Positions 3,695 through 53,247 of a stretch of 64,000 nucleotides of DNA are shown piece by piece. The stretch spans positions 898-64,897 of the forward strand of contig DAGG01000029.1 of NCBI GenBank assembly GCA_002498125.1. The letters run 5' to 3'. Source of the DNA: Candidatus Woesearchaeota archaeon UBA525. Its GTDB lineage: Archaea > Nanobdellota > Nanobdellia > Woesearchaeales > UBA525. The translations under genes were made by a program, and so were the position numbers. The notes under the pieces were generated by a model. That model was not told the DNA's origin. It worked only from the letters and a program-made list of their open reading frames with translations, and ran no database searches. The number at the start of each line of letters is the position of its first letter. Within the stretch, counting starts at the first letter, position 1.

Positions 3695-3945
3695 AAATAC
3701 ACAAAAAGAAGACGAGATTTAAACCTTTCCAAAAACTTACGTCGGGGGCCATGCGGAGAAGACCACGGCTGCGTGCGGGTCACGGCGCGTCGCAATCCTT
3801 TAGCAGTACATTTTGGAGGGCGTCACAACGGGCTCCCATCCGATGACCCCGCCTCTGCGCCTTTTACGTTCAAAGCATAGGCGTAACAAGGAGTAACACA
3901 CAGTAACACATCTTCGACAGAGCTGCAAAAAAGCGCAAGATAGCG

Positions 3946-4779
3946 TTGTGCACCTTGTACCAAAATAGGAAAACTATTTTAACACTCGACAATCCATCCC
4001 GGATGATGGGGACGTTAGGGGCGCAGGCGAAGACTGTCTACAACGTCTTCAAACTCGTGAAGACCCCCATCAGCTATCTCTACGATTACTGCTTCAATCC
4101 GATCGAGAAGACGTACGAACTCAAAAACGGCATGCGCGTAAACCTCGCCACTCGCACCGACCGCCTCTTCTTCCACGAGATATGGATCCATCACATCTAT
4201 ACGCGCGAGTTCGACGTGGAACAAGGCGACATCGTCTTCGATGTCGGGTCGCAGCGTGGCATGTTCTCCATCTATGCGTCCAGGAATGCCGCTGTAGTCT
4301 ACGCATTCGAGCCCATGCCTGATACCTACGTCATGCTCACCAAGAACCTGAAGCAGAACAGGATCAAGAACGTGCAGCCGATGAAGCTAGCACTCAGCAG
4401 CAAGAAAGGGGTGATGAAGCTCCACCTCCATGCGACGCACACCGGCAGCCATACGCTCTATAACCATTACGGCAAAGGCAAGACTGTGAACGTGAAAACA
4501 GAGACACTACAGAACTTCATGGACAAGCACAGGGTTGACCATATAGATTTCCTCAAGATGGACTGCGAAGGCGCTGAGGTCGACATCCTCTTCAACCTCC
4601 CGGTCGCGAAACTCAAGAAGATCAGGAAAATCGCAATGGAGTATCACGACAACATCACCGGCGTGCCACATACGAAAATCGTACAGTTCCTGCGCAAGAA
4701 CGGCTTCACTGTCGTCCTGCACGAAGAGAACACCGTGATGACGGCACAGCAAGACAAACGGCGCAAACGCCGCGCATGA
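3946..4779 (+). CDS. FkbM-family SAM-dependent methyltransferase
   Basis: FDVGSQRG, AFEPMP and FLKMDCEGAEVDIL. The likely start is MMGTL at 4003, with a TATA-like aaactattttaac about 25 nt upstream. Confidence 0.75.
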   Translation: MCTLYQNRKTILTLDNPSRMMGTLGAQAKTVYNVFKLVKTPISYLYDYCFNPIEKTYELKNGMRVNLATRTDRLFFHEIWIHHIYTREFDVEQGDIVFDVGSQRGMFSIYASRNAAVVYAFEPMPDTYVMLTKNLKQNRIKNVQPMKLALSSKKGVMKLHLHATHTGSHTLYNHYGKGKTVNVKTETLQNFMDKHRVDHIDFLKMDCEGAEVDILFNLPVAKLKKIRKIAMEYHDNITGVPHTKIVQFLRKNGFTVVLHEENTVMTAQQDKRRKRRA

Positions 4780-4785
4780 GGACAA

Positions 4786-6258
4786 TCATCGTCCAATCAT
4801 CGTTTTCAGGTCCTTCAGCTCCTTGACGGTAATCACGCGCAGCGCAAAGAGCAACACGGCATACATGATGCCAGCGACCAGCACCCCGACACCTATCTTC
4901 CACCACATCGTGAGTTCGGTGAGCCGAACGAGGAACACTACGCCAACCGCCCCTGCAGTCGCCAGGAGCACGCCTGCCATGCGCAGACCTGGAATTCCAT
5001 ATGGCACAATCTTCCGCAGCACGACCGTGTGCACGGCCAGGAGCACGATGAATGCCACTAGTGTCACTGCTGCCGAACCGGCAATCCCGTAGCGAGGAAT
5101 GAACAGGATATCACCGATCACATTGACCACGGCAGCAGCCACTAGACCGTAGAGTGCTTTCCTAGGATGTCCCAGGCCTGCGATGATGCTCGAGTTCAGC
5201 GTCGCGAAGGTGTAGAATACCCCGCCGATGACGAGAATCTGCAGCGCGAGCGCTGCACCGACATACGCTCCGCCGAAGAGGAGGTTAAGGATAATCCCTG
5301 GGTAGATGACGATGATTGCTGCGAACGGGAAGAGGAGGATGGAAAGGTAGAGGTACATCCTGCCGATGCCGTCAGTGAGTACGCCGGCGCCTTTCTTCGC
5401 CTGCATCTCGCTCGAGAGCGGGAACATCACTGCGTAGATGACGCCACCCACAAACCACAACAGTCCTGCAGTGGGAAGCGCCGCGTTGTACAGGCCGACC
5501 TCAGGCAACGTACGGAAAAGCGTGAGGAAGAAAGTGTCGATGTAGGTGAGGAAGAACCCGATACCGCTCGCTAAGATGATTGGGAAGCCAAATGCGATGA
5601 ACCTGCGCAGGAGCGTAGGGTCGAAGCGCGCCTTGACACGCCAGTATTCCGGGAAGGCTTTGCGCATGAGCGGGATGTAGACGACCGGGATGACAAGATA
5701 CATCAGGACATAACCGAGCATCACAGCGAAGACGCCGAAGCCAAGAGCGAGGAGCGCGACCACAATCGCCAAGAGCACGACAGCGCGTAGGAGCGTGAGG
5801 TAGCCGTACCAGCGCGTCAGCCCCTTGCCCTGGAAGAAAGCAATCAGAGAGACCTCAATCGGAGAGATGAAGACCATGATAGCAGTGAGGATAAGCAGAG
5901 GCACTGCGACCATTGTCCCGAAGTACTCCGCCGCGAGCCAACGCGCCAAGAGGAGCACGATGAGCAAGATGGTGCCGGTCACAATGAGCTGTGTGTAGAT
6001 GACGGTGATGAGCGCGGATTTCATCCGTTTCAGGTCACGGATGCCTGGTATGGCGTTCACGAGGGCATCCGAGAGCCCGAGCGTCTGGGCGAAGCCGAAG
6101 AAGCTCAAAAGCGCCATGACGGCGTAGATGAGACCATACTCTGCCGGGGTGAGCGATCTCGCAATCACGAGCCGGAGCAAGTAGCCGAACACGTTTGCGA
6201 GCGCGAGGCAGATGAAGATGACGCTGAAGCTCCAGAACGCCTTCTTCGTGTACGACAT
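4786..6258 (-). CDS. Polysaccharide/oligosaccharide flippase (MOP superfamily, Wzx-like)
   Basis: About 490 aa and highly hydrophobic, with 12 or more predicted TM helices and a Wzx-like topology. The start is taken at the internal Met (MSYTKKAFW...). The ORF extends to 6387, but that N-terminal extension is not hydrophobic. Confidence 0.75.
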   Translation of the reverse strand: MSYTKKAFWSFSVIFICLALANVFGYLLRLVIARSLTPAEYGLIYAVMALLSFFGFAQTLGLSDALVNAIPGIRDLKRMKSALITVIYTQLIVTGTILLIVLLLARWLAAEYFGTMVAVPLLILTAIMVFISPIEVSLIAFFQGKGLTRWYGYLTLLRAVVLLAIVVALLALGFGVFAVMLGYVLMYLVIPVVYIPLMRKAFPEYWRVKARFDPTLLRRFIAFGFPIILASGIGFFLTYIDTFFLTLFRTLPEVGLYNAALPTAGLLWFVGGVIYAVMFPLSSEMQAKKGAGVLTDGIGRMYLYLSILLFPFAAIIVIYPGIILNLLFGGAYVGAALALQILVIGGVFYTFATLNSSIIAGLGHPRKALYGLVAAAVVNVIGDILFIPRYGIAGSAAVTLVAFIVLLAVHTVVLRKIVPYGIPGLRMAGVLLATAGAVGVVFLVRLTELTMWWKIGVGVLVAGIMYAVLLFALRVITVKELKDLKTMIGR

Positions 6259-6360
6259 CAGAGTTGGTGGCGTAACTCTCTTTATTAAGGTTGAGAGGCA
6301 AATATCCATATAGAAAATAAATACCGAAACCCTTAAAAAGCAAGTCGCACTCCTACATCT

Positions 6361-6476
6361 TGGACGGTCACAGTGGCGTGGCTCCACCCGATCCCATTTC
6401 GAACTCGGAAGTTAAGCGCGCCGACGTTGCTGCCTGTACTGCTCTTGGGAGCGGGAACGCAGTATCGCTGTCCACC
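6361..6476 (+). rRNA. rrf: 5S ribosomal RNA (stand-alone copy)
   Basis: Conserved 5S core CCACCCGATCCCATTTCGAACTCGGAAGTTAAGC...GTACTG...TGGGAG. A terminal helix forms between GGACGG (5') and CTGTCC (3'). A T-run (tttcttttcc) follows immediately. Confidence 0.7.
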
Positions 6477-8907: not shown

Positions 8908-9117
8908 CTAAGCGAACTCCTTGAGCTCCTCCTCGACGTCATCCTCGTCGCGCTTGCCTGCGAGGACTGCCTCGTAGTAGGCGGTCGGCTTGATGTGCGT
9001 AATCGTCGTGCGCTGCACGACGTACTTGCCGTCCTTGCTCTTGTTGACGCTGCTCCTGATGATCGGCATCGAACGCAGCTGCTCTTCCTTCTTGGTCGTC
9101 AAACCCATTGAAACCAC
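8908..9117 (-). CDS. Small hypothetical protein (69 aa)
   Basis: Non-repetitive ORF with an acidic C-terminus. No clear promoter. Function unknown. Confidence 0.3.
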   Translation of the reverse strand: MVSMGLTTKKEEQLRSMPIIRSSVNKSKDGKYVVQRTTITHIKPTAYYEAVLAGKRDEDDVEEELKEFA

Positions 9118-9206
9118 TCCGGCGATGGTCGTGTGACCTCACCGCAGAAAGGGTATTCCGGAGCCAAGTAATGACTTCCGCACAGGAATCCAGAATACCA
9201 ACGGAG

Positions 9207-10382
9207 TCAGCCAGAGGCTTTCCGTTCCATCACTGAGAGCACCTCGATGTGCGGCGTCTGTGGGAAGAGGTCATAGCCCTCGAGCAGCGTGACCTCATAC
9301 CCTGCAGAGAGACGCTCGATGTCCTCCTGATGGGTGAGCGGGTTGCAACTGATATAGATGATGCGTTGCGGCGCCTGCCGCAGTAGCAGCGCGCACGCTT
9401 CTTTGCCCAGTCCTGGCCTTGCCGGGTCGCAGATCACCGTGTCAAAAGATATATTGTTAGACGCAAGCCACTGCGCCGCGTCAGCGACGTGGAACTCGGC
9501 ATTAACGATTTTGTTGAGCGAAGCGTTCTCCTGCGCCGCAGCGACTGCTTGCGCATTGAGCTCGACCCCGACCACACGCGAGGCCTTGGATGCGACTATC
9601 GCGCTGATTACGCCAACACCGCAGTAGAGATCGAGCACAGCCCCGCGGACATGCTCTGCTGCTGCAGTGAACAACTCACCCGCCATGCGCGTGTTCGCCT
9701 GGAAGAAAGTCGTCGGCCCGACGCGGAAGCGCTTACCGGCGATGACGTCAATGATATAATCCCTGCCGACGTGCATGTAGGGTTCTCCGACAGACACATC
9801 GGCCTTGCCCTTCACTGTCGTCCACCAGACGCTCGTCGCGCCGGTGGCTGCAACCTCGTGAAGGATAGAACGGAATACTGCATCCTGCTCAACACTTGGC
9901 GCAACCGTTGTCAGGATCACCATGATCTCTCCGACCTCGCCTGTACGGACCACAATATACTTCAAGAATCCATCATGCCTGATGTAATTGTAATCAGGGA
10001 TGTTGTGCGAAATGATTATCTCCCGCGCCTTGCGGTACGCCTCCTGCGCCGCAGCGGAGTGGAGCAGGCACACTTTCACGTTGACGACCTGCGCATACTT
10101 CCCGCGCTTGCGAAGCCCTGACTTACCAAAAGCCTGGACAAAGTCCATCCTGTTCCTGTACCCGAGCGGCTCTGAGCAAGGATGCACTTCCACCGGCCTT
10201 CCATACACTCCCTCGAGGTAGCGTACCTTGACGCGGACCTGATCATCGTAACCGTACTCCTGCAGCATGCAGCCACCGCAGCCTTCGGCGACGTGCGGGC
10301 ATGCAGGAGCCTGCCGGGAATCATCCTCCAGCAGCCTGAGGAACGATTCCTTTCGCCTGCGATCACTGTGCTTCTCATCCAT
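9207..10382 (-). CDS. TrmA/RlmD-family RNA (uracil-5)-methyltransferase with Fe-S/TRAM N-terminus
   Basis: Cys cluster CPHVAEGCGGC. MT motifs VLDLYCGVGVIS, ICDPAR and the C-terminal ISCNP. The start is taken at MDEKH (10382), which has a TATA-like ttaaaaaggg element upstream; the ORF can extend to 10487. Confidence 0.75.
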   Translation of the reverse strand: MDEKHSDRRRKESFLRLLEDDSRQAPACPHVAEGCGGCMLQEYGYDDQVRVKVRYLEGVYGRPVEVHPCSEPLGYRNRMDFVQAFGKSGLRKRGKYAQVVNVKVCLLHSAAAQEAYRKAREIIISHNIPDYNYIRHDGFLKYIVVRTGEVGEIMVILTTVAPSVEQDAVFRSILHEVAATGATSVWWTTVKGKADVSVGEPYMHVGRDYIIDVIAGKRFRVGPTTFFQANTRMAGELFTAAAEHVRGAVLDLYCGVGVISAIVASKASRVVGVELNAQAVAAAQENASLNKIVNAEFHVADAAQWLASNNISFDTVICDPARPGLGKEACALLLRQAPQRIIYISCNPLTHQEDIERLSAGYEVTLLEGYDLFPQTPHIEVLSVMERKASG

Positions 10383-10449
10383 AGAGGGGAGGACCCACAG
10401 GACATTTTTATGAGTACCCTTTTTAACCCCGGACTGCGGAGAACATCGC

Positions 10450-10875
10450 ATGGAACCCATCGTCATCTCTATCATTGTCATCCTCACCGCGGTCGTCTTC
10501 TACCTCCTCGGTCGTCTCATCGCCGAGCGAGGGTTCTCCAAGCGTATCATTGTGGAGCGGGAGGATGCTGCAAAGCGCAGTCGCGCTGTGGTCGGTGGCC
10601 AGTTCAGCGAACAGCTCGCGCCCTACCTGCCGGGATTCCAGTACAGGCCGACAGAGGCGAAGTTTCTCGGCAAGCCCGTGGACTTCATCGTGTTCGAGGG
10701 CCTGGATGAGAAGAGCATTAGCGGCGTCGTGTTCCTCGAAGTGAAATCCGGCGCGTCGCGCCTGTCGGCAACAGAGAAATCGCTCAAGGAAGCGATTGCC
10801 GCGGGCAATGTGCGCTATGAGACCTACCAGGTCCCTGAGGAGCTCACTTCCTCAAGGTCAAGGCCTGCGCCGTAG
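10450..10875 (+). CDS. Membrane-anchored PD-(D/E)xK nuclease-fold protein (Hjc-like)
   Basis: One N-terminal TM helix, then VDFIVFEG...VVFLEVKSG, matching the D...ExK catalytic core of Hjc/restriction-endonuclease-like folds. Confidence 0.5.
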   Translation: MEPIVISIIVILTAVVFYLLGRLIAERGFSKRIIVEREDAAKRSRAVVGGQFSEQLAPYLPGFQYRPTEAKFLGKPVDFIVFEGLDEKSISGVVFLEVKSGASRLSATEKSLKEAIAAGNVRYETYQVPEELTSSRSRPAP

Positions 10876-21715: not shown

Positions 21716-21970
21716 ATGGATGAGCATAAGCTGGAAGGTAAGGCGTTCATCGTCAAGAACGGCGCCAAACTACACAGCTTAAAGGATCTCTACGGCCATC
21801 TGGCAGTGATTGCAGACGCCGATTTCTCGCATCACGTCAACGAGCTGAAGAACGATTTCGCGGAATGGATAGAACACGCGCATAACGACAAGTTCCTCGC
21901 TCAAGCAGTTCGCCGGGCGAAGACAAAGGAAGAGATACGCAAAGCAGTCTTTATCGCGATGTTCAGGTAG
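21716..21970 (+). CDS. Small hypothetical protein (84 aa)
   Basis: ORF with a TATA-like ttcttatactc about 25 nt upstream of the ATG. Confidence 0.35.
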   Translation: MDEHKLEGKAFIVKNGAKLHSLKDLYGHLAVIADADFSHHVNELKNDFAEWIEHAHNDKFLAQAVRRAKTKEEIRKAVFIAMFR

Positions 21971-22333
21971 CTACGTCGCCTTGGCGATGGCATAGACTTC
22001 GCCGGTATCGGGCCTGAGATATGCTAAGACTCTCGTGTTAAGGATACTGCCGTGACCGCCCATCTCCCTGACAAACTCATCGATTGCCTGCGAATTCCGG
22101 AACGTGAACCCCTTACGTTTCTTAGTCTCGTGGTCTTCGATGTCAAACCTGAGATCGAGGTAATCCTTCATCATCATAGTCTCGCGGATGACGGCGGTGC
22201 GTGCCTCGAGTTTCTTCTCCGAATACAAGGTCACTGGATTTTGATTCCCGTCGTCTTCGTGCGTATTAACGAAGTAGACATTGCTGCAGAGCGCTGGATC
22301 GAAGCCGTAGATAAACGGCATTGGAGGATTCAT
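21971..22333 (-). CDS. Hypothetical protein, last gene of the surface operon
   Basis: Its ATG overlaps the TGA of the upstream 946-aa gene (ATGA). The start is at MNPPMPFIYG. Confidence 0.4.
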   Translation of the reverse strand: MNPPMPFIYGFDPALCSNVYFVNTHEDDGNQNPVTLYSEKKLEARTAVIRETMMMKDYLDLRFDIEDHETKKRKGFTFRNSQAIDEFVREMGGHGSILNTRVLAYLRPDTGEVYAIAKAT

Positions 22334-25170
22334 ATCCCCCCTTCGAACGGCCTGCACATCTTGCATGGCACAAGACCTGCATTCACTGCCTCACGCTTGC
22401 TTGAGTAAGCGATACGCTTATGGCGCGGGATACGGCGGGCGACCATGCAGTATGGAGTGTGCACTGTGTTACCGTCCTTGCCACCGAGGTAGATGACCTC
22501 GTTCGGCTTCATGCCCGGCACAGAGAGCACATGCGGTGCAGGTGGCTGCGCTCCAACGGCGATGTTCACCGTCTGTCCACCGCCACGGAAGTCACGTATG
22601 ACTGTGCCGCGGTCAGTGCTATGGTCAGGGCCACGGATGGTCTCGACCTGGCGTCCACGTACAGGGACTATCGCGCGCGAGCGGTTCGACGTGCGAACAA
22701 CGTTGCGCTCAGGAGCACGGGCGACTATCCTGCCGATACGAGATTTACGCGCAGTAGTCTTACGCGGGGTCTTAGTAGTTTTAGTAGCAGTCTTAGTCGT
22801 AGTCTTGGCCTTGCGCACTGCCTTACGCGTCTTGCGTGTAGCGGGCACAATGACAAGAGTATTGTCAGCGAACGGCTTCTGTCTGTACTCCTTCACTGTG
22901 AGCACGATGAGGAACATCACGAGCAAGAGCAGGATAAGCTCGAAGACCACGATGTAGGAACACCATGCCTCGAGGCACTGACCGAAGGTCCAGACCTTGA
23001 CAGGGATGACCCGCACGATGAACACCGGCGAATCGGTGATACCGCCCTTGGCGTCGCTCGCTGTCACAACCATCGTGTTCTCGCCCGCGAAGTTGCGGTC
23101 AGGAACGAGCGTGAGCATGGAACCCTCAAGCTGCGCGCGCACGTCGCTTGGCTGTGTGATCGCATAGCTGAGAATGTCCTGGTCAGGATCCTCGAAATAC
23201 TGCTCGAGGTCGATGGTGCGTTCGGTGTTCTGGTACAGCTCTATTACCGTCGACACAGTCGTGTCCGCGACGCGCTCATAGCGCATCTCTGCGCTAGGCG
23301 GCCGCAGGAGCAGCATCGAAAGCATGAGCAGGACTGCGCCTGCAATGAGCGCAAACTTGATGAGTGCGAGCGTCTTAGGCGCCACTCCCTGCGCGAGGAA
23401 GGGATATCCTGCGTAGATTGCGATGAGCAATACTACTGCTGCGATGAGCAGTAGCGCGAGCAGGAGGACAAGCCATGCGCAGAACGTGAAGCTCGCGAGG
23501 AACGCGCCGAGCCACTCCAGGAAGCGGATGAGGAAATTGTCATCCTGGAGCTCGATGCCGACTGATTCCACGTAAGGTATGCTCTGCGTGGTGAATGTCG
23601 GCAGGACGATGTATCGTCCCCGCTCCTGCGTCGTCAGGTTCTCGAGCGGGATGATATGGATTGCGCGCTGATCTCCAGGCTGGAGCGTGATTTCCTGCTC
23701 CTGCACTGTGAAGAGCGTGCTCTCTGTCTCGATGGTGTAGACGCCGCCTTCGCTACCGGTGTGCTTCACGATGACCGGGATGACGGTCGCGTCATCCTTG
23801 ATCGATATCTCATCATCGTCGATTTGCACCATGTGGCAAGTGCGCTGCGTCTGGCTGTTGAATGTGACTGGCGCGCTCGCATTCACTTGCGGCTGGCCGG
23901 CAGGCCATACGCGCACGACCGCAGTGTGCTCCGCGTCTGTGCATGGCAGCGTCACGCGTAGTGGTACGTTGATGTTCTGCCGCGGCTCTACGCGGATTGA
24001 TGTCTCGTCGAGGGTGAAGATGCTCGGTCCCTCGACCTGGAGCTGGAAGACCTGACTGCGGTCGCCATCGTTGCGGACGTTGACGTAGAGGGTCTTGGCG
24101 CCGCAGCATGCGGTGAGTGGAGTAGTCAGTGTGACCTCAGGCTCGCTGCGGATCTCGAGCGCTGGAGCATAGCAGTTGGCCACATTGAGCGTGACATCAC
24201 GCTGCTTGCTCACGCCGCCGTAGCGGTCGTTCGATGAGATCGTCATCTCGTACTCTCCGACTGCAGGGTTGTACACAGCAAGCGTGGCGTTGCGCTCCTC
24301 TCCCGAGGCAAGCTCGAGGGAGTTGTCGAACGTAACGAAGTGCGGCGCATCGAGGTCCATGTAGACCACGTCTGACGCCGGAGCGTCATTGCGCACTGGG
24401 ACCGCTATGCGGGTATCAGTCCGAGCGCATACATCGATGCTCGTCGGGAGGTCTATGCTGTAGCCGTACTCGTTGGTGATCGTGATATCGCGCCAGACAG
24501 TGGTCCCATCGCCGCTCTTGCCTGCGAGGATGAAGGGTACTGTACGCGTGCCGTGCTCTGTGCAAGCGAAGCTGTAGATGACCTCCTGAGTGAACGACTC
24601 TCCCGGCAGGAGGCGGAACTCTGTGTCCTCAGCTTCGGGCTCGTACTGGCCGAACGAGAGGAGATAGTCCTCAGGGAATGTGCCGATGTTGCGAGCAGTG
24701 ACCTCGAAAGTGGCCGGGTCGCACAGACCGACGGTCTGTTTTGTCGGCGCAACGTCGAGCGCCGCAGTCTGGCATGCGTCGACGCGTATCGAGCGCTCGA
24801 TGCTTCTTGTGCGGCCGTAGCTGTTCGTGACAACTACATCATATGGGTGCGTTCCGCGGACGCTGCAGCTGTCCTCGACGTAGATGAGGACCTCTTCGAA
24901 GTGCTTGGGCGCAAGCTGGAAGTCCGGTCTCACGACCTTGATCCCACCAGGGTATGTGCTACGCACCTGGACGTGGAAGTCAGCGTAGAACTGGCCGACG
25001 TTCTCGACGATGATACGGTCGACCTTGGTCTCGCACGCGCAGAGCTTGAGCTGCTCGTTGTTAGGCGAAGCGGCGGTGAAGTCATTCGTGTACTTGTTCA
25101 CGATGAGCTCTGCGCTCACGCCTGTGCTGAGTATGAGGAACGCGATTATGAGTGTGAGTGCGCGGTTCAT
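22330..25170 (-). CDS. Large surface protein: signal peptide, CARDB-like repeats, TM region, juxtamembrane Ig-like domain, K/T-rich tail and C-terminal Ada-type Zn-binding domain
   Basis: Signal MNRALTLIIAFLILSTGVSA. Repeated beta-rich modules (e.g. VNVRNDGDRSQVFQLQVEG). Hydrophobic block around aa 545-615 and a second TM near aa 720. KTTKT-rich basic segment. C-terminal HTPYCMVARRIPRHKRIAYSSKREAVNAGLVPCKMCRP matches the Ada_Zn_binding consensus. Confidence 0.7.
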   Translation of the reverse strand: MNRALTLIIAFLILSTGVSAELIVNKYTNDFTAASPNNEQLKLCACETKVDRIIVENVGQFYADFHVQVRSTYPGGIKVVRPDFQLAPKHFEEVLIYVEDSCSVRGTHPYDVVVTNSYGRTRSIERSIRVDACQTAALDVAPTKQTVGLCDPATFEVTARNIGTFPEDYLLSFGQYEPEAEDTEFRLLPGESFTQEVIYSFACTEHGTRTVPFILAGKSGDGTTVWRDITITNEYGYSIDLPTSIDVCARTDTRIAVPVRNDAPASDVVYMDLDAPHFVTFDNSLELASGEERNATLAVYNPAVGEYEMTISSNDRYGGVSKQRDVTLNVANCYAPALEIRSEPEVTLTTPLTACCGAKTLYVNVRNDGDRSQVFQLQVEGPSIFTLDETSIRVEPRQNINVPLRVTLPCTDAEHTAVVRVWPAGQPQVNASAPVTFNSQTQRTCHMVQIDDDEISIKDDATVIPVIVKHTGSEGGVYTIETESTLFTVQEQEITLQPGDQRAIHIIPLENLTTQERGRYIVLPTFTTQSIPYVESVGIELQDDNFLIRFLEWLGAFLASFTFCAWLVLLLALLLIAAVVLLIAIYAGYPFLAQGVAPKTLALIKFALIAGAVLLMLSMLLLRPPSAEMRYERVADTTVSTVIELYQNTERTIDLEQYFEDPDQDILSYAITQPSDVRAQLEGSMLTLVPDRNFAGENTMVVTASDAKGGITDSPVFIVRVIPVKVWTFGQCLEAWCSYIVVFELILLLLVMFLIVLTVKEYRQKPFADNTLVIVPATRKTRKAVRKAKTTTKTATKTTKTPRKTTARKSRIGRIVARAPERNVVRTSNRSRAIVPVRGRQVETIRGPDHSTDRGTVIRDFRGGGQTVNIAVGAQPPAPHVLSVPGMKPNEVIYLGGKDGNTVHTPYCMVARRIPRHKRIAYSSKREAVNAGLVPCKMCRPFEGGI

Positions 25171-25478
25171 TTGTGATACCTCTCCTGTTCTTGTGCTGTA
25201 TACGGAGGCAAGTTCATCCGTCGCTCAAGGTCACTGACTGCACCCGTCAGTTGTTCGAAGTCCCTGGTGGTGCGGTACCCCGCAGCCCCAACGGCCACGA
25301 GAACAACACCTGCTCCAGCGAAAGAGTACTGGTCGATAGGATTCTTGATGGAATAACTCCCGCCAAACATGAGCATCCCGAGGAGCCCGAGTGTAGCATA
25401 CGCCCGCTTGTTTCTCTTCAGCGTGCTTTTGACTACTGCGATTTCCTCTGCTGTCGTCGATTGAGATGTTGAGATCAT
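25167..25478 (-). CDS. Small membrane protein (2 TM)
   Basis: 103 aa with two hydrophobic helices. Its stop overlaps the start of the 946-aa gene (ATGA). Confidence 0.5.
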   Translation of the reverse strand: MISTSQSTTAEEIAVVKSTLKRNKRAYATLGLLGMLMFGGSYSIKNPIDQYSFAGAGVVLVAVGAAGYRTTRDFEQLTGAVSDLERRMNLPPYTAQEQERYHK

Positions 25479-25485
25479 GTGTCAC

Positions 25486-26565
25486 CTAATAATATGTCTC
25501 TACCTTCTTCTCTGCATCCTCGACAGCCACCCTCTTGCGGGGCTTGTGTGGAGTTTCGGAGATGCGGGCGCTATCAGTGGAATCGTGGCGATCGTGCCTG
25601 CCACTCTTGCGAAGCACAATCACTATCGCGATGATGATGAGCGCGAGCAGGATGATGATGAAGATGCCTTGCAGCACCCAGAGGCCTGGGAAAACGGCAG
25701 GCTCTGCGCGCGGCGAGCGCACGTAGACGTCAATCGGAACGACGGTAGTTTGGTCGCCGCTCGTGATAGTGAGCTGGATGGTATAGGGACCGGCGTTGCC
25801 GCCTTCGATGTAGAGGTATACCTCATCGCCGTGGCCTGCCACGAGCGTCATGCGCGGAGCAGGGTCGATGCGCCAGGTGCCTGGAGACTGCACACCCAGG
25901 TCATAAGTCGCGCTGCTGTCGCCGAGATTCATGATAGATATAGGGATTATCGCGTTCTCGCCGTGATCGACATCGATCCTATTGAAGACATTGATGACTG
26001 TCGTGTCGAGCGGGCCGTCAGCTGTACCGCAGGCGTCGCTGCTCTGCACGATGATGCGCTCGCGCTGTGATTCGAGCACGCCGCCGGAGCTTGCGGTGAC
26101 TGAGAGGTCATACGCCTTGGCTCTCGCGCACTTCGGGATGCGCAGCCAGAAGTCAACGACTGCCATCTCGCCCTGAGGAATGTACGCTACGCGCTGCTCT
26201 GCGTCGATTCCCAGTTCTTTGTTCGCCACGCGCACAGTGATTTCACTGATGGGCCCTGGCTGACTATTGATCATACGGACTGTGAGGTGCGCTATCTCGC
26301 CCTGCTTGAGGTTCCCGTCAGGATTGACTATGATCTCCTCAAGGAGGCTGTCACAGGCGTCGCCAATCCGATCGCGGTCCATGTCGCGTTGCTCGCTATT
26401 GGCTATACCTGGGCAGTTGTCGAACTCATCGATGATACCATCGCAGTCGAAATCAGGCGCGGGCCCGAAGTTCGTCATGACCATGCATGCAGCATGGCCT
26501 GGAGCCGCAATAAGGCTTATACTAGCGATGAGAACTGCCAGGAACGTGCCCACGATCCATTTCAT
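25486..26565 (-). CDS. Surface protein with thrombospondin type-3-like Ca-binding repeat, CARDB-like domain and C-terminal TM anchor
   Basis: Signal peptide. DFDCDGIIDEFDNCPGIANSEQRDMDRDRIGDACD (TSP3-like). C-terminal hydrophobic helix plus basic tail. Paralog of 34985..36016. Confidence 0.65.
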   Translation of the reverse strand: MKWIVGTFLAVLIASISLIAAPGHAACMVMTNFGPAPDFDCDGIIDEFDNCPGIANSEQRDMDRDRIGDACDSLLEEIIVNPDGNLKQGEIAHLTVRMINSQPGPISEITVRVANKELGIDAEQRVAYIPQGEMAVVDFWLRIPKCARAKAYDLSVTASSGGVLESQRERIIVQSSDACGTADGPLDTTVINVFNRIDVDHGENAIIPISIMNLGDSSATYDLGVQSPGTWRIDPAPRMTLVAGHGDEVYLYIEGGNAGPYTIQLTITSGDQTTVVPIDVYVRSPRAEPAVFPGLWVLQGIFIIILLALIIIAIVIVLRKSGRHDRHDSTDSARISETPHKPRKRVAVEDAEKKVETYY

Positions 26566-26587: not shown

Positions 26588-26596
26588 TTTATAAAG
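26588..26596 (-). promoter_or_regulatory. TATA box (tttataaag) for the surface operon
   Basis: About 23-31 nt upstream of the start at 26565. Confidence 0.4.
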
Positions 26597-26670: not shown

Positions 26671-27219
26671 ATGCGACCAATAGAATACCTCGAGACCGCA
26701 TGGCTGCTGCTACCCGACTCCCAAAGGCGCATGCAAGATACCGGACTGAATGTAGAGAACGTCACTTTGAGGGATATTGAAAATATTGCTCACGAAGAGC
26801 TGACGGGCAAGAGTTATAGTACAGCACTAAAGGAATTAAGAGCGGAACTGAGAACAGGCCCGCACTACGCTGCCGCGACAGTGAATCACATCTATCTCAA
26901 CCTCGATTCTGCAAACGACTTGAGTATCCCCCTCACCCAGTTCCTACTGCTCCACGAGCTGCACCATATCGGCTTCAACAGGAGGTTGATTGCACGAATC
27001 GAAGCGATAGGCGCCAATGACATCAGACCGTACATCGCAAGAGAGTTTCCCATCTGGACAATTGAAGGGTTCGCAGAGTACGGGGCGAGGCGCATAGTAG
27101 GACACGCCCCAAAACTAACGAATCACTACACTGCTCTGTGCTCAAGAATGCAAGACTTCGCCGCAAGTAGGGGAACGATGGGTCAAATCGCCGATGATAT
27201 CATCGAAATCTATTTCTGA
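26671..27219 (+). CDS. Small cytoplasmic HExxH-motif protein (zincin-like, unknown function)
   Basis: LLLHELHHIGF contains HExxH. No signal peptide. Confidence 0.45.
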   Translation: MRPIEYLETAWLLLPDSQRRMQDTGLNVENVTLRDIENIAHEELTGKSYSTALKELRAELRTGPHYAAATVNHIYLNLDSANDLSIPLTQFLLLHELHHIGFNRRLIARIEAIGANDIRPYIAREFPIWTIEGFAEYGARRIVGHAPKLTNHYTALCSRMQDFAASRGTMGQIADDIIEIYF

Positions 27220-30050
27220 AGTACGACCGCAGGCTTCCCAGGCAAGCCGTTCTGCGCCTTCGGAGATTCTGCAGCGCCGGCTTCGAGAATCTCTACCTTC
27301 TTACCAGCGATAGATTCAAGGTACTCGCGGGCGGACTCGAGCCACTCGCGCTCTTGCACAGCCGAAGGCACATCTTGTGGTTGGCGACCTCCCTTGACCA
27401 GGAACGTGACGAGACGCTGCAGTTCTGGGCCGTGCGCAGCGAGCGGTGTCGCGGAAAGGAGCTTCATGATCTCGGCAGGGTTACGCGTCGTCTTCGTCGC
27501 TTCGTCGAACGCCGCATATGCTTCGCGCTTCCAATCAGCAGCGAGGAAGAGCTGCACAGAGGCGGGAGCAGCACTCTTCTCCAGCTGTCGCTGGATGTCA
27601 TCCGCGACTTGGCGAACCATCGCCTCTCGCCTGTCGAGCGCGGGATCGAGAGCCGACGTGTCGACAGCAGGCCACGGCGCGACGCTCACAAAACCATCGT
27701 TGCCGAGCTTCCGCCATCCCTCCTCACACACGTGTGGGATAAATGGAGCAAGCATGACAAGCTGCGCCTCGAGACACTCGCGCAGCAGTTTCTTGTTCTG
27801 CTTACCCGCGGTCCTCACCACATACCACTTGAGCGCATGGTTGATCTCGAAGAACGCGAGTTGGATAGCAGTCCTGAAGTTAGTCTGCTCCATCGCGTCG
27901 GTAATATGTTGTACGGAAGACGCCATAGATGAGCGCAACCATGAGTCCACTGGAGTGGACGTTTCCTCGGTATTGCCCGTGACATCTTCACATGATCGAA
28001 GGAGTGTCTCGAACTTGCCGTGGAGGTTGCCTGCGAAGTTGGAATCCCAATTTGGATCATCCATGCCTTCGCCGCCGTTGAGGATTGTCATGCGCGTAGC
28101 GTCTGCACCGTACTCCTCTGTGAGCTTGCGCACAGGGATTACGTTGCCTAAGCTTTTGCTCATCTTCTGGCCGTTGACCGTTACCCAGCCATTGACTCCA
28201 ATTCCCTTCGGCCAGTGCTCCTCTGGGAAGATGGCACAGTGGTTGAAGAGGAAGAACGTGAGATGGTTCTGCACGAGGTCCTTACCGCTGTTGCGGAAGT
28301 CAACCGGATACCAGTACATGAACTCGGCGCGCAGCGCCTCCACATCAACTCCAGGCATGTTAGGCGCAGTGCCTTTCCCCAGGAGCACGTAGTCGAAGAA
28401 CCTCCTGTCGAGGAGCTTCGGGTCGATATCCTTGATACTGTGCACAATGGTATAGTACGCCATGTACGCTGTGCTGTCAGAGAGTGATTCGATGAGCCAC
28501 CGCTCGTCCCACGGCAGGCGCGTGCCCAAGCCGTACTCACGCGTGCACGCCCAGTCGTTGAGCCAGTCGATGACATACTCGAACTGCTGGCGCGATTTCT
28601 CAGGGTAGAGCGTGACGCCGTCGAGCGCGTGGTGCGTCTTGCGCTTCCACTCGGCGTCGCCATAGGTCACGAACCACTGATCAGATACTATCTTCACGAC
28701 GCTCTGCGTCTGGCAGCGGCATACGACCTTGCCGGTGAGTTCATAGAAGGTCTCTGCCTTCCCACTATCCAGCATGTCCTTCTTCATCTTGTCCTTGGCC
28801 TGCTGCACAGGTTCGCCTGCGTACGGGCCGACGAGCATCGTGCCCTCGTAAAATCCTTTCTTGTAGACTACTTTTTTCGCCTCGTCGAGCTTAGCGCGAT
28901 CATGCTGCGACTTGATGCCCATATCCTCGCAAATCCTCACCGCCGCCATGTCTCCGAGGTCGCTCGATTTGATGATCGCGATTGGCTTGATATCAGCAAC
29001 GATGTTAAGCGGAATCCCCTCCTTCTCAGCAGCGCCTGGTTGCTGCAAGTCGTGGAGACCCATCCAGTCGTCGGGTGCGTCACTCGGGACGCTTGTGACT
29101 ATTCCCGTGCCCTTATCTGGACTGCAGAAATGGCTGGGAAGCACAGGTACGGTGCGGTCGACTGCGGGCGCCATGGCCCTCTTGCCGAGGAGCTCGCTCC
29201 CTTTGACCTTCCCGATGACCTCGACTGCACGCTCCTGCATGAGGAGCTTCTCTGCGCATGCCGCGCTGATGATCCAGGTCTCCTGGCCATGAGGGCCTTT
29301 CACTCGCGCCTTGACGTACTCAATGTCCTTGCCTACCCAGAGGTTAGTCTGGCCGTAGACTGTCTCAGGCCGCAGTGTAGCGGCGATGAGGAACGTGCCT
29401 ATCTCGCCGTCGAGAGGGAACTTGAGCAGCGTGAACTCCTGCGGGGTCTCGCCTTCGCCGACGCTGCGCGCGTGGTCACTGACCGGCGCGCTCTCTTTAG
29501 GGCACCATACGACCGGGTGCCTGCCTTGCTGCACAAGGCCTTTCTCATGGAGCGTGGTGAACTGCCAGCGTATGAACGCGTCGTACTGGGGATTAAGGCT
29601 GGTTGTGATGAACTCGCGTCGCCAGTCGATGCTCAAGCCCACGGCGGAGACATCCTGTTTGTAGCGCGGAGAGAAGTACGCTATCCAGTGCTCTGGATCC
29701 TTGAAGAGCGGGATCTCGTGATCAGGAACGCCGTTCTCCTTGAGTATACCTATCTGCTTGGCGTCACCTTCAGTGACGCGCATGGCCGCGGTGGTTATGG
29801 GACTGCCGGTTGCGTGCCACGCTTGGGGAAACAGCACGTTGAACCCGCGGTGGCGTTTGTAGCGCGCAAATGCCTCGACACGCATCATCGTGAACAGGTG
29901 GCCGATGTGCGGCAGGCCGTTCACGTATGGGTAAGGGAATGTGCAGAAGAATTTCGGCGTGCCTTCCTTCGGCACTGCCTCAAAGAGCTTGGCCTTGTTC
30001 CACTCATCCTGCCAGCGCTGCTCGCGCTCGCGCGTCTGCTCAATACCCAT
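27210..30050 (-). CDS. leuS: Leucyl-tRNA synthetase (archaeal/eukaryal type)
   Basis: HIGH motif (PYVNGLPHIGHLF) and KMSKS (GQKMSKSLGN). Editing-domain-sized insertion. 946 aa. Confidence 0.9.
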   Translation of the reverse strand: MGIEQTREREQRWQDEWNKAKLFEAVPKEGTPKFFCTFPYPYVNGLPHIGHLFTMMRVEAFARYKRHRGFNVLFPQAWHATGSPITTAAMRVTEGDAKQIGILKENGVPDHEIPLFKDPEHWIAYFSPRYKQDVSAVGLSIDWRREFITTSLNPQYDAFIRWQFTTLHEKGLVQQGRHPVVWCPKESAPVSDHARSVGEGETPQEFTLLKFPLDGEIGTFLIAATLRPETVYGQTNLWVGKDIEYVKARVKGPHGQETWIISAACAEKLLMQERAVEVIGKVKGSELLGKRAMAPAVDRTVPVLPSHFCSPDKGTGIVTSVPSDAPDDWMGLHDLQQPGAAEKEGIPLNIVADIKPIAIIKSSDLGDMAAVRICEDMGIKSQHDRAKLDEAKKVVYKKGFYEGTMLVGPYAGEPVQQAKDKMKKDMLDSGKAETFYELTGKVVCRCQTQSVVKIVSDQWFVTYGDAEWKRKTHHALDGVTLYPEKSRQQFEYVIDWLNDWACTREYGLGTRLPWDERWLIESLSDSTAYMAYYTIVHSIKDIDPKLLDRRFFDYVLLGKGTAPNMPGVDVEALRAEFMYWYPVDFRNSGKDLVQNHLTFFLFNHCAIFPEEHWPKGIGVNGWVTVNGQKMSKSLGNVIPVRKLTEEYGADATRMTILNGGEGMDDPNWDSNFAGNLHGKFETLLRSCEDVTGNTEETSTPVDSWLRSSMASSVQHITDAMEQTNFRTAIQLAFFEINHALKWYVVRTAGKQNKKLLRECLEAQLVMLAPFIPHVCEEGWRKLGNDGFVSVAPWPAVDTSALDPALDRREAMVRQVADDIQRQLEKSAAPASVQLFLAADWKREAYAAFDEATKTTRNPAEIMKLLSATPLAAHGPELQRLVTFLVKGGRQPQDVPSAVQEREWLESAREYLESIAGKKVEILEAGAAESPKAQNGLPGKPAVVLQK

Positions 30051-32249: not shown

Positions 32250-32333
32250 TGCGGGAGACAGGATTCGAACCTGCGAAGACACAAGGCCACTGGCACCTCA
32301 AGCCAGCCCATTTGACCGCTCTGGCACTCCCGC
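32250..32333 (-). tRNA. tRNA-Leu (anticodon GAG), class II with long variable arm
   Basis: Acceptor GCGGGAG/CTCCCGC plus A73. Three-bp D-stem. Anticodon stem CTGGC/GCCAG with loop TTGAGGT. T-arm GCAGGTTCGAATCCTGT. Confidence 0.8.
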
Positions 32334-52824: not shown

Positions 52825-52885
52825 CCTAGGATTTAAGCTTTTACAGGAAAATCCTTAAGAACAACAGCGTATTGACAACATTGTC

Positions 52886-53199
52886 GGGCGGGAAGTCGAC
52901 TCCCGCTGTATAGTGAGAAAAGTCCTGGCACCCCCGCAAGGGAGCCGCAAGGCGGCCGCTCGTGGAAGCGAGGAGGGGAAACCCTACGGCAACGAACGGA
53001 CAGAAACGGACCAACCGTCGCAGGGATGATTCCCGGCAAGGTCTGGCGACAGGCCCTTGAAGGATGACGTCGCGACGGACGCGGATGAAACGAACGTCCC
53101 GGCCGGTGCAAGGCCAGTATGGCCGCTCAGTTGAATGTCGATGGTTGTGGTCCGAGGTCAGACCCCGGCGCAGCAGCAGAACCAGGCTTACTCCCGCCC
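52886..53199 (+). ncRNA. rnpB: RNase P RNA (archaeal type A-like)
   Basis: 5' GGGCGGGAAGTC...GAGAAAAGTCCTGGC (P4/CR-I, GNAAAGUCC). 3' ACAGAACCAGGCTTA (CR-V) then ACTCCCGCCC, which pairs with the 5' end (P1). Internal GGGAAACCC and AAGGCGGCCGC helices. The ORFs over this region are spurious. Confidence 0.75.
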
Positions 53200-53247
53200 G
53201 ACACCTCATCATCAAGCTTTAAGTATCGAAGCGGAATCCCCTCGCGT

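Follow-up and report, generated by a model that had tools for sequence, protein, structure and literature searches.

An envelope protein of Woesearchaeota with an Ada-like zinc module predicted at the end of a cytoplasmic tail

In this work, we analyzed a 64,000-nucleotide (nt) stretch of DNA from Candidatus Woesearchaeota archaeon UBA525 (GCA_002498125.1, contig DAGG01000029.1). This stretch is referred to below as the window, and all positions are counted within it. On its minus strand, the open reading frames (ORFs) g1 and g3 encode predicted envelope proteins, and g2 and g4 encode two small proteins. Our analyses indicate that g3 ends in a module that can be assigned, by profile comparison and predicted fold, as a true member of the Ada_Zn_binding superfamily, in a widespread C-terminal form with His as the first ligand. 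Judging from related loci, g1 and g3 appear to be the conserved unit. On balance, and with modest confidence, we consider the best explanation to be an envelope pair of g1 and g3, in which the cytoplasmic tail of g3 is a non-catalytic anchor for polyanions or nucleic acids. The four ORFs had been proposed in a first-pass annotation, and all of them are present, with the same lengths in the public gene calls for the identical contig:

25486..26565, minus strand: g1, ORF of 359 amino acids (aa)
25167..25478, minus strand: g2, ORF of 103 aa
22330..25170, minus strand: g3, ORF of 946 aa
21971..22333, minus strand: g4, ORF of 120 aa

The layout first read for g3, namely a signal peptide, beta modules, a hydrophobic block at residues 546-621, an immunoglobulin (Ig)/cadherin-like domain at 642-722, a transmembrane (TM) helix at 737-758, a basic tail and the C-terminal sequence, agrees with our analysis. 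An AlphaFold2 (AF2) model of g3, for which the family alignment was the input, has a mean predicted local distance difference test score (pLDDT) of 75.7. The parts of g3 are as follows:

25111..25170, minus strand: signal peptide, residues 1-20 (ending ...STGVSA, before ELIV), from hydropathy, with an AF2 helix at 2-14 and the family consensus ASAELVVNKYTNDF
23548..25089, minus strand: ectodomain, residues 28-541, five tandem Ig-like beta-sandwich domains (AF2 strands 31-541, pLDDT ~80-92)
23308..23535, minus strand: membrane block, residues 546-621, from AF2 helices and insertion free energies
23005..23247, minus strand: juxtamembrane cadherin-like/Big_9 domain, residues 642-722, from Pfam, NCBIfam and an AF2 beta-sandwich
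22897..22962, minus strand: third TM helix (TM3), residues 737-758, followed by KEYRQK, from hydropathy, AF2 and insertion free energy
22507..22878, minus strand: polybasic Lys/Arg/Thr-rich disordered linker, residues 765-888 (pLDDT <50)
22552..22572, minus strand: conserved TVNIAVG motif, residues 867-873, from a motif scan
22348..22500, minus strand: predicted C-terminal HCCC zinc module, residues 891-941, from invariant ligands, hhalign and AF2

The C-terminal module has the pattern H904-x3-C908-x27-C936-x2-C939, followed by seven residues to the C-terminus, and is folded at residues 894-940 in the full-length AF2 model (pLDDT ~80). The His and the three Cys are the sole invariant columns in 19 aligned homologous tails, which include those of a divergent branch at 25-32% identity. 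Since this invariance extends down to 25% identity, the HCCC motif is not a chance pattern, and H904, C908, C936 and C939 probably bind zinc, as the alignment and the model both suggest. A scan of the whole window for further modules of the type [HC]-x3-C...C-x2-C found none besides that of g3.

The relationship to the N-terminal domain of Ada (N-Ada) was recovered at the levels of profile and predicted structure. When the family tail profile was compared with the sequences of the PDB, the top match was N-Ada, and hhalign aligned the tail with N-Ada at a probability of 91.4% (E 9e-7), pairing H904 with Cys38, C908 with Cys42, C936 with Cys69 and C939 with Cys72. An AF2 model of the tail (pLDDT 84.5) was also searched by Foldseek against the PDB, and ranks 1-3 were all N-Ada structures (1u8b, 1wpk and 1zgw; TM-score 0.68-0.78, probability 0.99-1.00), with noise from rank 4 on. 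The best match, 1u8b_A, has a TM-score of 0.78, a root mean square deviation of 2.2 Å and 28% identity. The direct scores are lower. PF02805, with a cut-off of 23 bits, gave 14.8 bits (E 0.029) for the whole g3 and 20.2 bits for the tail alone, and the alignment covers only positions 34-64 of the 65 in the profile. DUF6233 scored slightly higher than PF02805 on the g3 tail, and the NCBIfam Ada model matched g3 at E 0.002. Within the g3 family, PF02805 matches were obtained for 14 of the 19 tails, the best at 7.3e-6, whereas the NF051437 'sunset' model matched none of the 19 at E <= 10. A word-indexed search with the tail alignment returned one fragment only, the query being too short for E-values against 5.8 billion sequences. 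Thus, the C-terminal similarity to Ada is supported by the profile comparison, but the description of the module as near-consensus did not hold, given the scores below the cut-off, the coverage of half the profile and a first ligand that is His instead of Cys.

The likeness to N-Ada of Escherichia coli (N-Ada10; PF02805; PDB 1adn, 1eyf, 1u8b, 1zgw) includes the predicted fold, a small beta-sheet with a C-terminal helix bearing CxxC, and the ligand spacing, which is x3/x26/x2 in N-Ada and x3/x27/x2 in g3. Both also share the signature A-G-[hydrophobic]-x-P-C-K-x-C-x-P. However, Ada has four Cys ligands (Cys38, Cys42, Cys69 and Cys72), whereas the first ligand of g3 is His, and the module is N-terminal in Ada, while in g3 it forms the last 50 residues of an archaeal membrane protein.

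This first ligand bears directly on function. Ada is activated by methylation of Cys38 (PMC10957082), and an older assignment of Cys69 as the methyl acceptor is quoted elsewhere (PMC12353581). Because the position of Cys38 is His in every member of the g3 family, the module is expected to be non-catalytic and not to accept a methyl group from methylphosphotriesters. The same replacement was found in 276 of the 276 recognisable modules of the 144 nearest relatives, 260 of which also keep the x27 spacing. On sequence grounds, a repair or alkylation-sensor role of the g3 module is very unlikely. The homology to N-Ada would favour a genuine Ada-type domain accepting methyl groups from DNA methylphosphotriesters, as would the Joint Genome Institute (JGI) name of one relative, P0147 ('methylphosphotriester-DNA--protein-cysteine methyltransferase'), but that name is probably wrong and the product of automatic transfer. 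Besides the His, neither an AraC-type helix-turn-helix (HTH) nor a methyltransferase domain was matched in g3 by Pfam or NCBIfam, and secreted nucleases and tandem arrays contain the module as well, so that such chemistry in g3 is barely conceivable. The Ada-type label therefore stands for superfamily homology, as given by hhalign, Foldseek and transitive matches, but not for function. He and co-workers are said to have reported in 2005 that methyl transfer to Cys38 is an electrostatic switch that raises DNA affinity. We speculate that His, as a neutral ligand, makes the metal site less negative, with an effect similar to that of methylation in Ada, and that it favours constitutive contact with the phosphate backbone.

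The module has many relatives. An exhaustive HMMER search with the tail profile yielded 4,887 representatives of 50%-identity clusters at E <= 0.001, 230 of them at E <= 1e-10, and the 144 best new matches were examined. ADA_N-like/'sunset' relatives were reached at E 1e-58 to 1e-12. In the nearest relatives, the last module is usually followed by just 2-7 residues, and 126 of the 144 match PF02805 at E <= 0.001, with scores of up to 115 bits. Seven of eight relatives that were checked individually exceed its 23-bit cut-off. DUF6233 matches were found in 40 of the 144, and some relatives pass the NF051437 'sunset' model (P0049, for example, at 41.6 bits against a cut-off of 27). HCCC modules are mostly located at the C-termini of secreted or membrane proteins. 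They occur as tandem arrays of 2-7 modules behind a signal peptide, on SNase nucleases (10 proteins) and on ComEC-type metallo-beta-lactamase (MBL) hydrolases, and NCBIfam holds 'sunset domain variant' models for the ribosomal proteins L4, L17, L20 and S2. A further class combines four TM helices with a long coiled coil and with one or two modules; it accounts for 19 of the 144 matches and includes proteins of Woesearchaeota, and one of its members bears the JGI methyltransferase name mentioned above; examples are P0058 (Ca. Woesearchaeota JW968_01150) and P0081 (archaeon ABIC95_02510), besides 17 others. The modules of this class are predicted from charge bias to be cytoplasmic. Only this class was used from the charge-orientation analysis of the relatives; the orientation of single N-terminal hydrophobic segments by charge was discarded as unreliable, most of these being signal peptides that start at residue 4-8.

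A recent study by Pei, Schaeffer, Cong and Grishin (Proteins 2025, PMC12353581) created an ECOD X-group of 'ADA_N-like domains', with examples at the C-termini of Cutibacterium ribosomal protein L4, Clostridioides difficile Cwp27, ComEC, Mycobacterium tuberculosis ArfC and an LGFP-repeat protein. Cwp27 and ComEC have signal peptides, and ArfC has an N-terminal TM helix (PMC12353581). Our search of the literature for the 'sunset' domain or DUF6233 found no relevant paper. The g3 module resembles the ADA_N-like/'sunset'/DUF6233 domains in its HCCC pattern and in its position, at most seven residues from the protein end. It differs from them in that those described so far come from Gram-positive bacteria and are for the most part secreted or ribosomal, whereas its host is a DPANN archaeon, and in that it is predicted to be cytoplasmic, on a polytopic protein with an Ig array, after a polybasic disordered linker. 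The four-TM coiled-coil proteins, which are among the closest relatives of the g3 tail, are likewise membrane proteins with C-terminal modules predicted to be cytoplasmic; unlike g3, they have no ectodomain, but a compact N-terminal four-TM bundle followed by the coiled coil. The coupling of such a module to secreted or membrane proteins is thus already documented in Gram-positive bacteria. The earlier view of the coupling as unusual is weakened by this record (PMC12353581), by the at least 4,887 cluster representatives and by the second Woesearchaeota family, although the archaeal envelope context is new.

The location of the module follows from the architecture of the rest of g3. The ectodomain is net acidic (39 K/R versus 74 D/E) and has 10 invariant and two nearly invariant Cys residues. 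Its Foldseek matches are generic multi-Ig proteins (HYDIN/ASH, cadherins and the S-layer protein SbsB). The beta modules, described at first as CARDB-like, are beta-sandwiches, so that the description holds at the level of the fold; however, Pfam found no CARDB match in g3, the sub-threshold matches being FixG_C, Cep192 and Big_9. The membrane block consists of an amphipathic interfacial helix (546-559), TM1 (563-586), a loop (587-597) and TM2 (598-621), and K599 is reported in the short loop between TM1 and TM2. The juxtamembrane domain at 642-722 has sub-threshold matches to Big_9 (E 2e-4), Cadherin_5 (1.7e-3) and the NCBIfam tandem-95 repeat (1.2e-4), and most g3 homologues have a precomputed PF17963 match. 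It is net acidic and carries the invariant motif YF-DPD-D..Y, of a type typical of Ca-binding cadherin-like domains, and is probably extracellular.

The topology is a computed one, for which hydropathy and charge bias were combined with the secondary structure of the AF2 model and with a free-energy scale for membrane insertion. The apparent free energies follow the scale of Hessa et al. (2005). Each of the 29 family members has exactly three insertable helices, whose apparent free energies add up to -2.6 to -9.4 kcal/mol, and TM1 and TM2 have negative insertion free energies in all 29. The amphipathic segment is never insertable; its helix is only 14 residues long, and its free energy is +3.8 kcal/mol in this protein and up to +18.7 kcal/mol among the 29 homologues. 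A two-helix hairpin at 546-586, by which the tail would flip outside, was rejected on the basis of the AF2 helix length and the insertion free energies. The tail after TM3 (759-946) contains 41 K/R versus 11 D/E, and the tails of homologues with a full-length tail contain 30-95 K/R versus 3-37 D/E, whereas acidic residues prevail in the ectodomain and in the cadherin-like domain of all members of the g3 family. From three independent lines, namely an ectodomain that must lie outside, given its signal peptide, acidic charge and many Cys residues, the three insertable helices and the charge bias, the last ~190 residues of g3 are predicted, with good support but not as a demonstration, to be cytoplasmic. 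As far as the tools used allow, the cytoplasmic placement of the zinc module that was originally proposed is hence borne out.

An extracellular tail, with extracellular DNA or a host surface of negative charge as its ligand, is nonetheless conceivable, given that the same module is found on signal-peptide proteins with tandem modules and on membrane-anchored SNase and MBL nucleases, presumably outside the cell, and that secreted examples are classified in ECOD (PMC12353581). For the tail to end up outside, the TM helices that follow the ectodomain would have to be even in number, and the sole candidate for a fourth is the non-insertable 14-residue segment described above. This arrangement would also move the cadherin-like domain, which is acidic, into the cytoplasm and expose 41 K/R on the outer side, contrary to the positive-inside rule. 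We therefore regard it as quite improbable.

The g1 product, the conserved partner of g3, has a signal peptide, thrombospondin (TSP) type-3 repeats, which are Ca-binding, Ig-like modules and a short cytoplasmic tail, as seen with Pfam and hydropathy, and a C-terminal TM helix at approximately residues 296-320 by hydropathy. It scored 28.8 bits against Pfam TSP_3, above the cut-off of 25, in keeping with its initial identification as a TSP3 membrane protein, and matched NCBIfam NF033506 ('putative S-layer protein') at E 2.5e-17, with 62.8 bits against a cut-off of 110. Both g1 and g3 show the features of envelope proteins, that is, a signal peptide, repeated Ig-like ectodomains and a membrane anchor. 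They resemble archaeal S-layer and surface glycoproteins in the signal peptide, the tandem Ig-like domains, the acidic ectodomains, the C-terminal TM anchor (g1) and the Ca-binding motifs (TSP3 and cadherin-like). Typical S-layer proteins, unlike g3, do not have three TM helices and a long cytoplasmic tail.

Comparison with related loci indicates which genes belong together. We identified 28 full-length-type homologues of g3, at 36-58% BLASTP identity, and their named sources are all metagenome-assembled genomes (MAGs) of Candidatus Woesearchaeota. In all 14 related loci whose flanks are long enough, tblastn detected a g1 homologue upstream of that of g3. The two genes are directly adjacent in most of the 14, with small ORFs or a larger gap between them in L001, L006 and L010, and the gene for leucyl-tRNA synthetase (LeuRS) is usually located just upstream of the pair. 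The g2 slot is empty in L002, L003 and L004, with no gene between g1 and g3. Relatives of g2 and g4 were sought in 15 related loci by tblastn and phmmer, with nothing convincing found; for g2, phmmer gave only weak matches to the tandem small paralogues of L001, at E 1.7e-4 in a very small database. Among 5.8 billion proteins, the search for g4 homologues found only g4 itself, and the small ORFs downstream of g3 in other loci are unrelated to it; by these searches, g4 appears to be an ORFan. Since the g2 and g4 slots are not conserved, the conserved unit is taken to be the pair of g1 and g3. In view of the variable slots and of the lack of g4 homologues in these searches, we reject a conserved four-gene operon, so that of the four-gene operon first proposed, the four ORFs are present, but only g1 and g3 are kept across relatives.

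The variable slots have contents of their own. In L001, the g2 slot (3724-5923) holds a tandem array of four or five small paralogous proteins with two hydrophobic segments apiece, and four tandem paralogues with the motif VEITPE.P..Y ... YYG.P, unrelated to the g4 of the window, occupy the g4 slot (8939-10758). The g2 protein of the window has two Gly-rich hydrophobic segments (26-44 and 51-68), in line with its description as a small protein with two TM helices, but their hydrophobicity is just moderate, with Kyte-Doolittle maxima of 1.35 and 1.69. The g4 protein is soluble and slightly acidic. The loci L010, L012, L013 and L015 come from MAGs titled 'uncultured Methanosarcinales archaeon', yet they show the Woesearchaeota-type synteny of g1 and g3, in part with LeuRS, and these titles probably reflect mislabelled or contaminated bins.

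Based on these observations, we propose that g1 and g3 may constitute a lineage-specific cell-envelope pair of Woesearchaeota, probably Ca2+-dependent, and S-layer-like or adhesive. After cleavage of the signal peptide, g3 would display its five Ig-like domains outside, held by the TM hairpin, with the cadherin-like domain exposed, and the third crossing would put the last ~190 residues inside. There, the polybasic linker and the zinc module may together act as a binder of polyanions that is not sequence-specific. The likeliest ligand would be nucleic acid, either the chromosome, RNA or ribosomes, and its binding would tether the envelope complex to the cytoplasmic contents. A nucleic-acid anchor is favoured because the other partners of the module are nucleic-acid related (Ada, SNase and ComEC-type MBL nucleases, and the ribosomal proteins L4, L17, L20 and S2) and because the linker is H1-like and a K/R-rich extension exists. 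In one branch of the family, this H1-like extension follows the module and brings the whole tail to 95 K/R. The partners of the module lend circumstantial support by analogy, and nucleic-acid binding by g3 itself is probable at best.

A short motif in the linker points to another use of the tail. TVNIAVG lies ~30-37 aa before the module in the main family branch, whereas the members of the divergent branch (P0020, P0023, P0026 and P0085) carry VNVQINI, INVQLNI or VNIQVNI at their very end, beyond the module and a K-rich extension. Hydrophobic residues alternate with Asn/Gln in these motifs, which suggests a beta-strand interaction motif. The tail might accordingly be a protein-interaction or assembly module, which either recruits a partner in the cytoplasm (for instance g4, g2, or a protein of the cytoskeleton or of cell division) or oligomerises the envelope protein from inside. 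The motif is conserved but shifts its position, as short linear interaction motifs do; g3 overlaps with small genes that are presumably transcribed together with it; and no function has been established for ADA_N-like domains (PMC12353581). However, g2 and g4 are not conserved with g3 and thus cannot be a general partner, the other contexts of the module are nucleic-acid related, and so strong a positive charge is seen more typically in proteins that bind polyanions. We consider an interaction module somewhat unlikely.

A third proposal, raised at the outset, is membrane-tethered signalling, in which the ectodomain, on touching a host or partner cell, would cause the tail to be released by proteolysis, and the tail would then act as a DNA regulator. 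An extracellular adhesive array combined with a cytoplasmic, putatively DNA-binding end is compatible with it. However, neither a protease nor a cleavage motif was found, nor was any domain for sequence-specific DNA binding, of which an HTH would be an example. The sequence specificity of Ada comes from its HTH domain. This domain, which follows the zinc domain in Ada (PMC12353581), is absent in g3, and the homologue P0024, described below, has lost the tail without loss of the remaining protein. Signalling of this kind is therefore improbable.

Several points weigh against our best explanation as a whole. Scored directly, the g3 tail does not reach the curated cut-offs of Pfam and NCBIfam. 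The module is not intrinsically cytoplasmic, given that numerous bacterial proteins related to it are secreted and consist of a signal peptide and then modules. P0024 (L017 5001-7418, on a 64-kb contig), a complete g3 homologue, ends 33 residues after TM3, with neither the basic linker nor the module, and in this lineage the tail was lost or never gained. P0027 (L005 6001-9219) has a helical repeat instead of the zinc module. Since P0024 lacks the module and P0027 has a different tail, the tail is modular and dispensable in some lineages. The authors of the ECOD group describe the function of ADA_N-like domains as undetermined (PMC12353581), and acidic lipids or a protein partner are conceivable alternative ligands of the polybasic tail. 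Moreover, the operon status of g1-g4 would follow from overlaps and spacing only.

Other homologues illustrate the range of these tails. P0116 (1065 aa, on JGI contigs of up to 1.56 Mb) carries both the helical repeat and the zinc module. The helical cytoplasmic element of P0027 and P0116 reads '...SSE(D/P)HE(M/L)KQVL(A/R)THKKR(Q/E)TQENI...'. P0017, a g3 homologue of 962 aa, has two HCCC modules, starting at residues 807 and 924, and is the sole family member with a precomputed PF02805 match. The gene that follows P0024 encodes an epimerase.

With respect to the locus, the archaeal origin of the window is evident from an RNase P RNA, a 5S rRNA and a tRNA-Leu, and genes for an archaeal-type LeuRS, RpoN and ribosomal protein S9 adjoin g1-g4. 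The ATGA start/stop overlaps that were said to join all four genes exist at g2/g3 and at g3/g4, but not at g1/g2, where the junction is TAG, gtgacac, ATG, with a 7-nt spacer. A candidate TATA box, TTTATAAA, was picked by eye from the sequence; it would be compatible with an archaeal promoter and with a leaderless or short-leader transcript that starts the g1-g4 unit. These and the remaining features are the following:

26588..26595, minus strand: candidate archaeal TATA box TTTATAAA, ~26 nt upstream of the g1 ATG
27210..30050, minus strand: LeuRS gene
26671..27219, plus strand: 182-aa ORF with no family match, also in the public annotation
21716..21970, plus strand: 84-aa ORF with weak DUF5752 and DUF7893 matches, converging on g4 with zero spacing
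6360..6476, plus strand: 5S rRNA
32250..32333, minus strand: tRNA-Leu(GAG)
52884..53201, plus strand: archaeal RNase P RNA (98.7 bits)

The 182-aa ORF runs towards the LeuRS gene, and the 3' ends of the two overlap by 10 nt. The 84-aa ORF recurs near the g1-g3 pair, in varying positions, in at least six loci (L003, L004, L007, L008, L009 and L014).

To conclude, the domain combination in g3 and its phylogenetic and topological context are new, whereas the module itself is known and very common. If the tail does not bind nucleic acid, our work still corrects the annotation, g3 being an envelope protein with a non-catalytic Ada-like zinc knuckle rather than a DNA-repair or alkylation-sensing protein. 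A broader and tentative idea, which we rate as rather unlikely, is that an envelope complex of g1 and g3 is coupled to the nucleoid or to ribosomes in the ultrasmall DPANN cells through the H1-like linker and the module, and that the four-TM family does likewise, as a lineage-wide strategy. If the tail binds nucleic acid, the cell surface would be linked to the chromosome or the translation machinery in the little-known DPANN cells, and the ADA_N-like domains, whose partners are nucleases, ribosomal proteins and Ada, would gain a testable function in general. A tether from the surface to the chromosome, if true, would be the first functional assignment for the ADA_N-like/'sunset' module.

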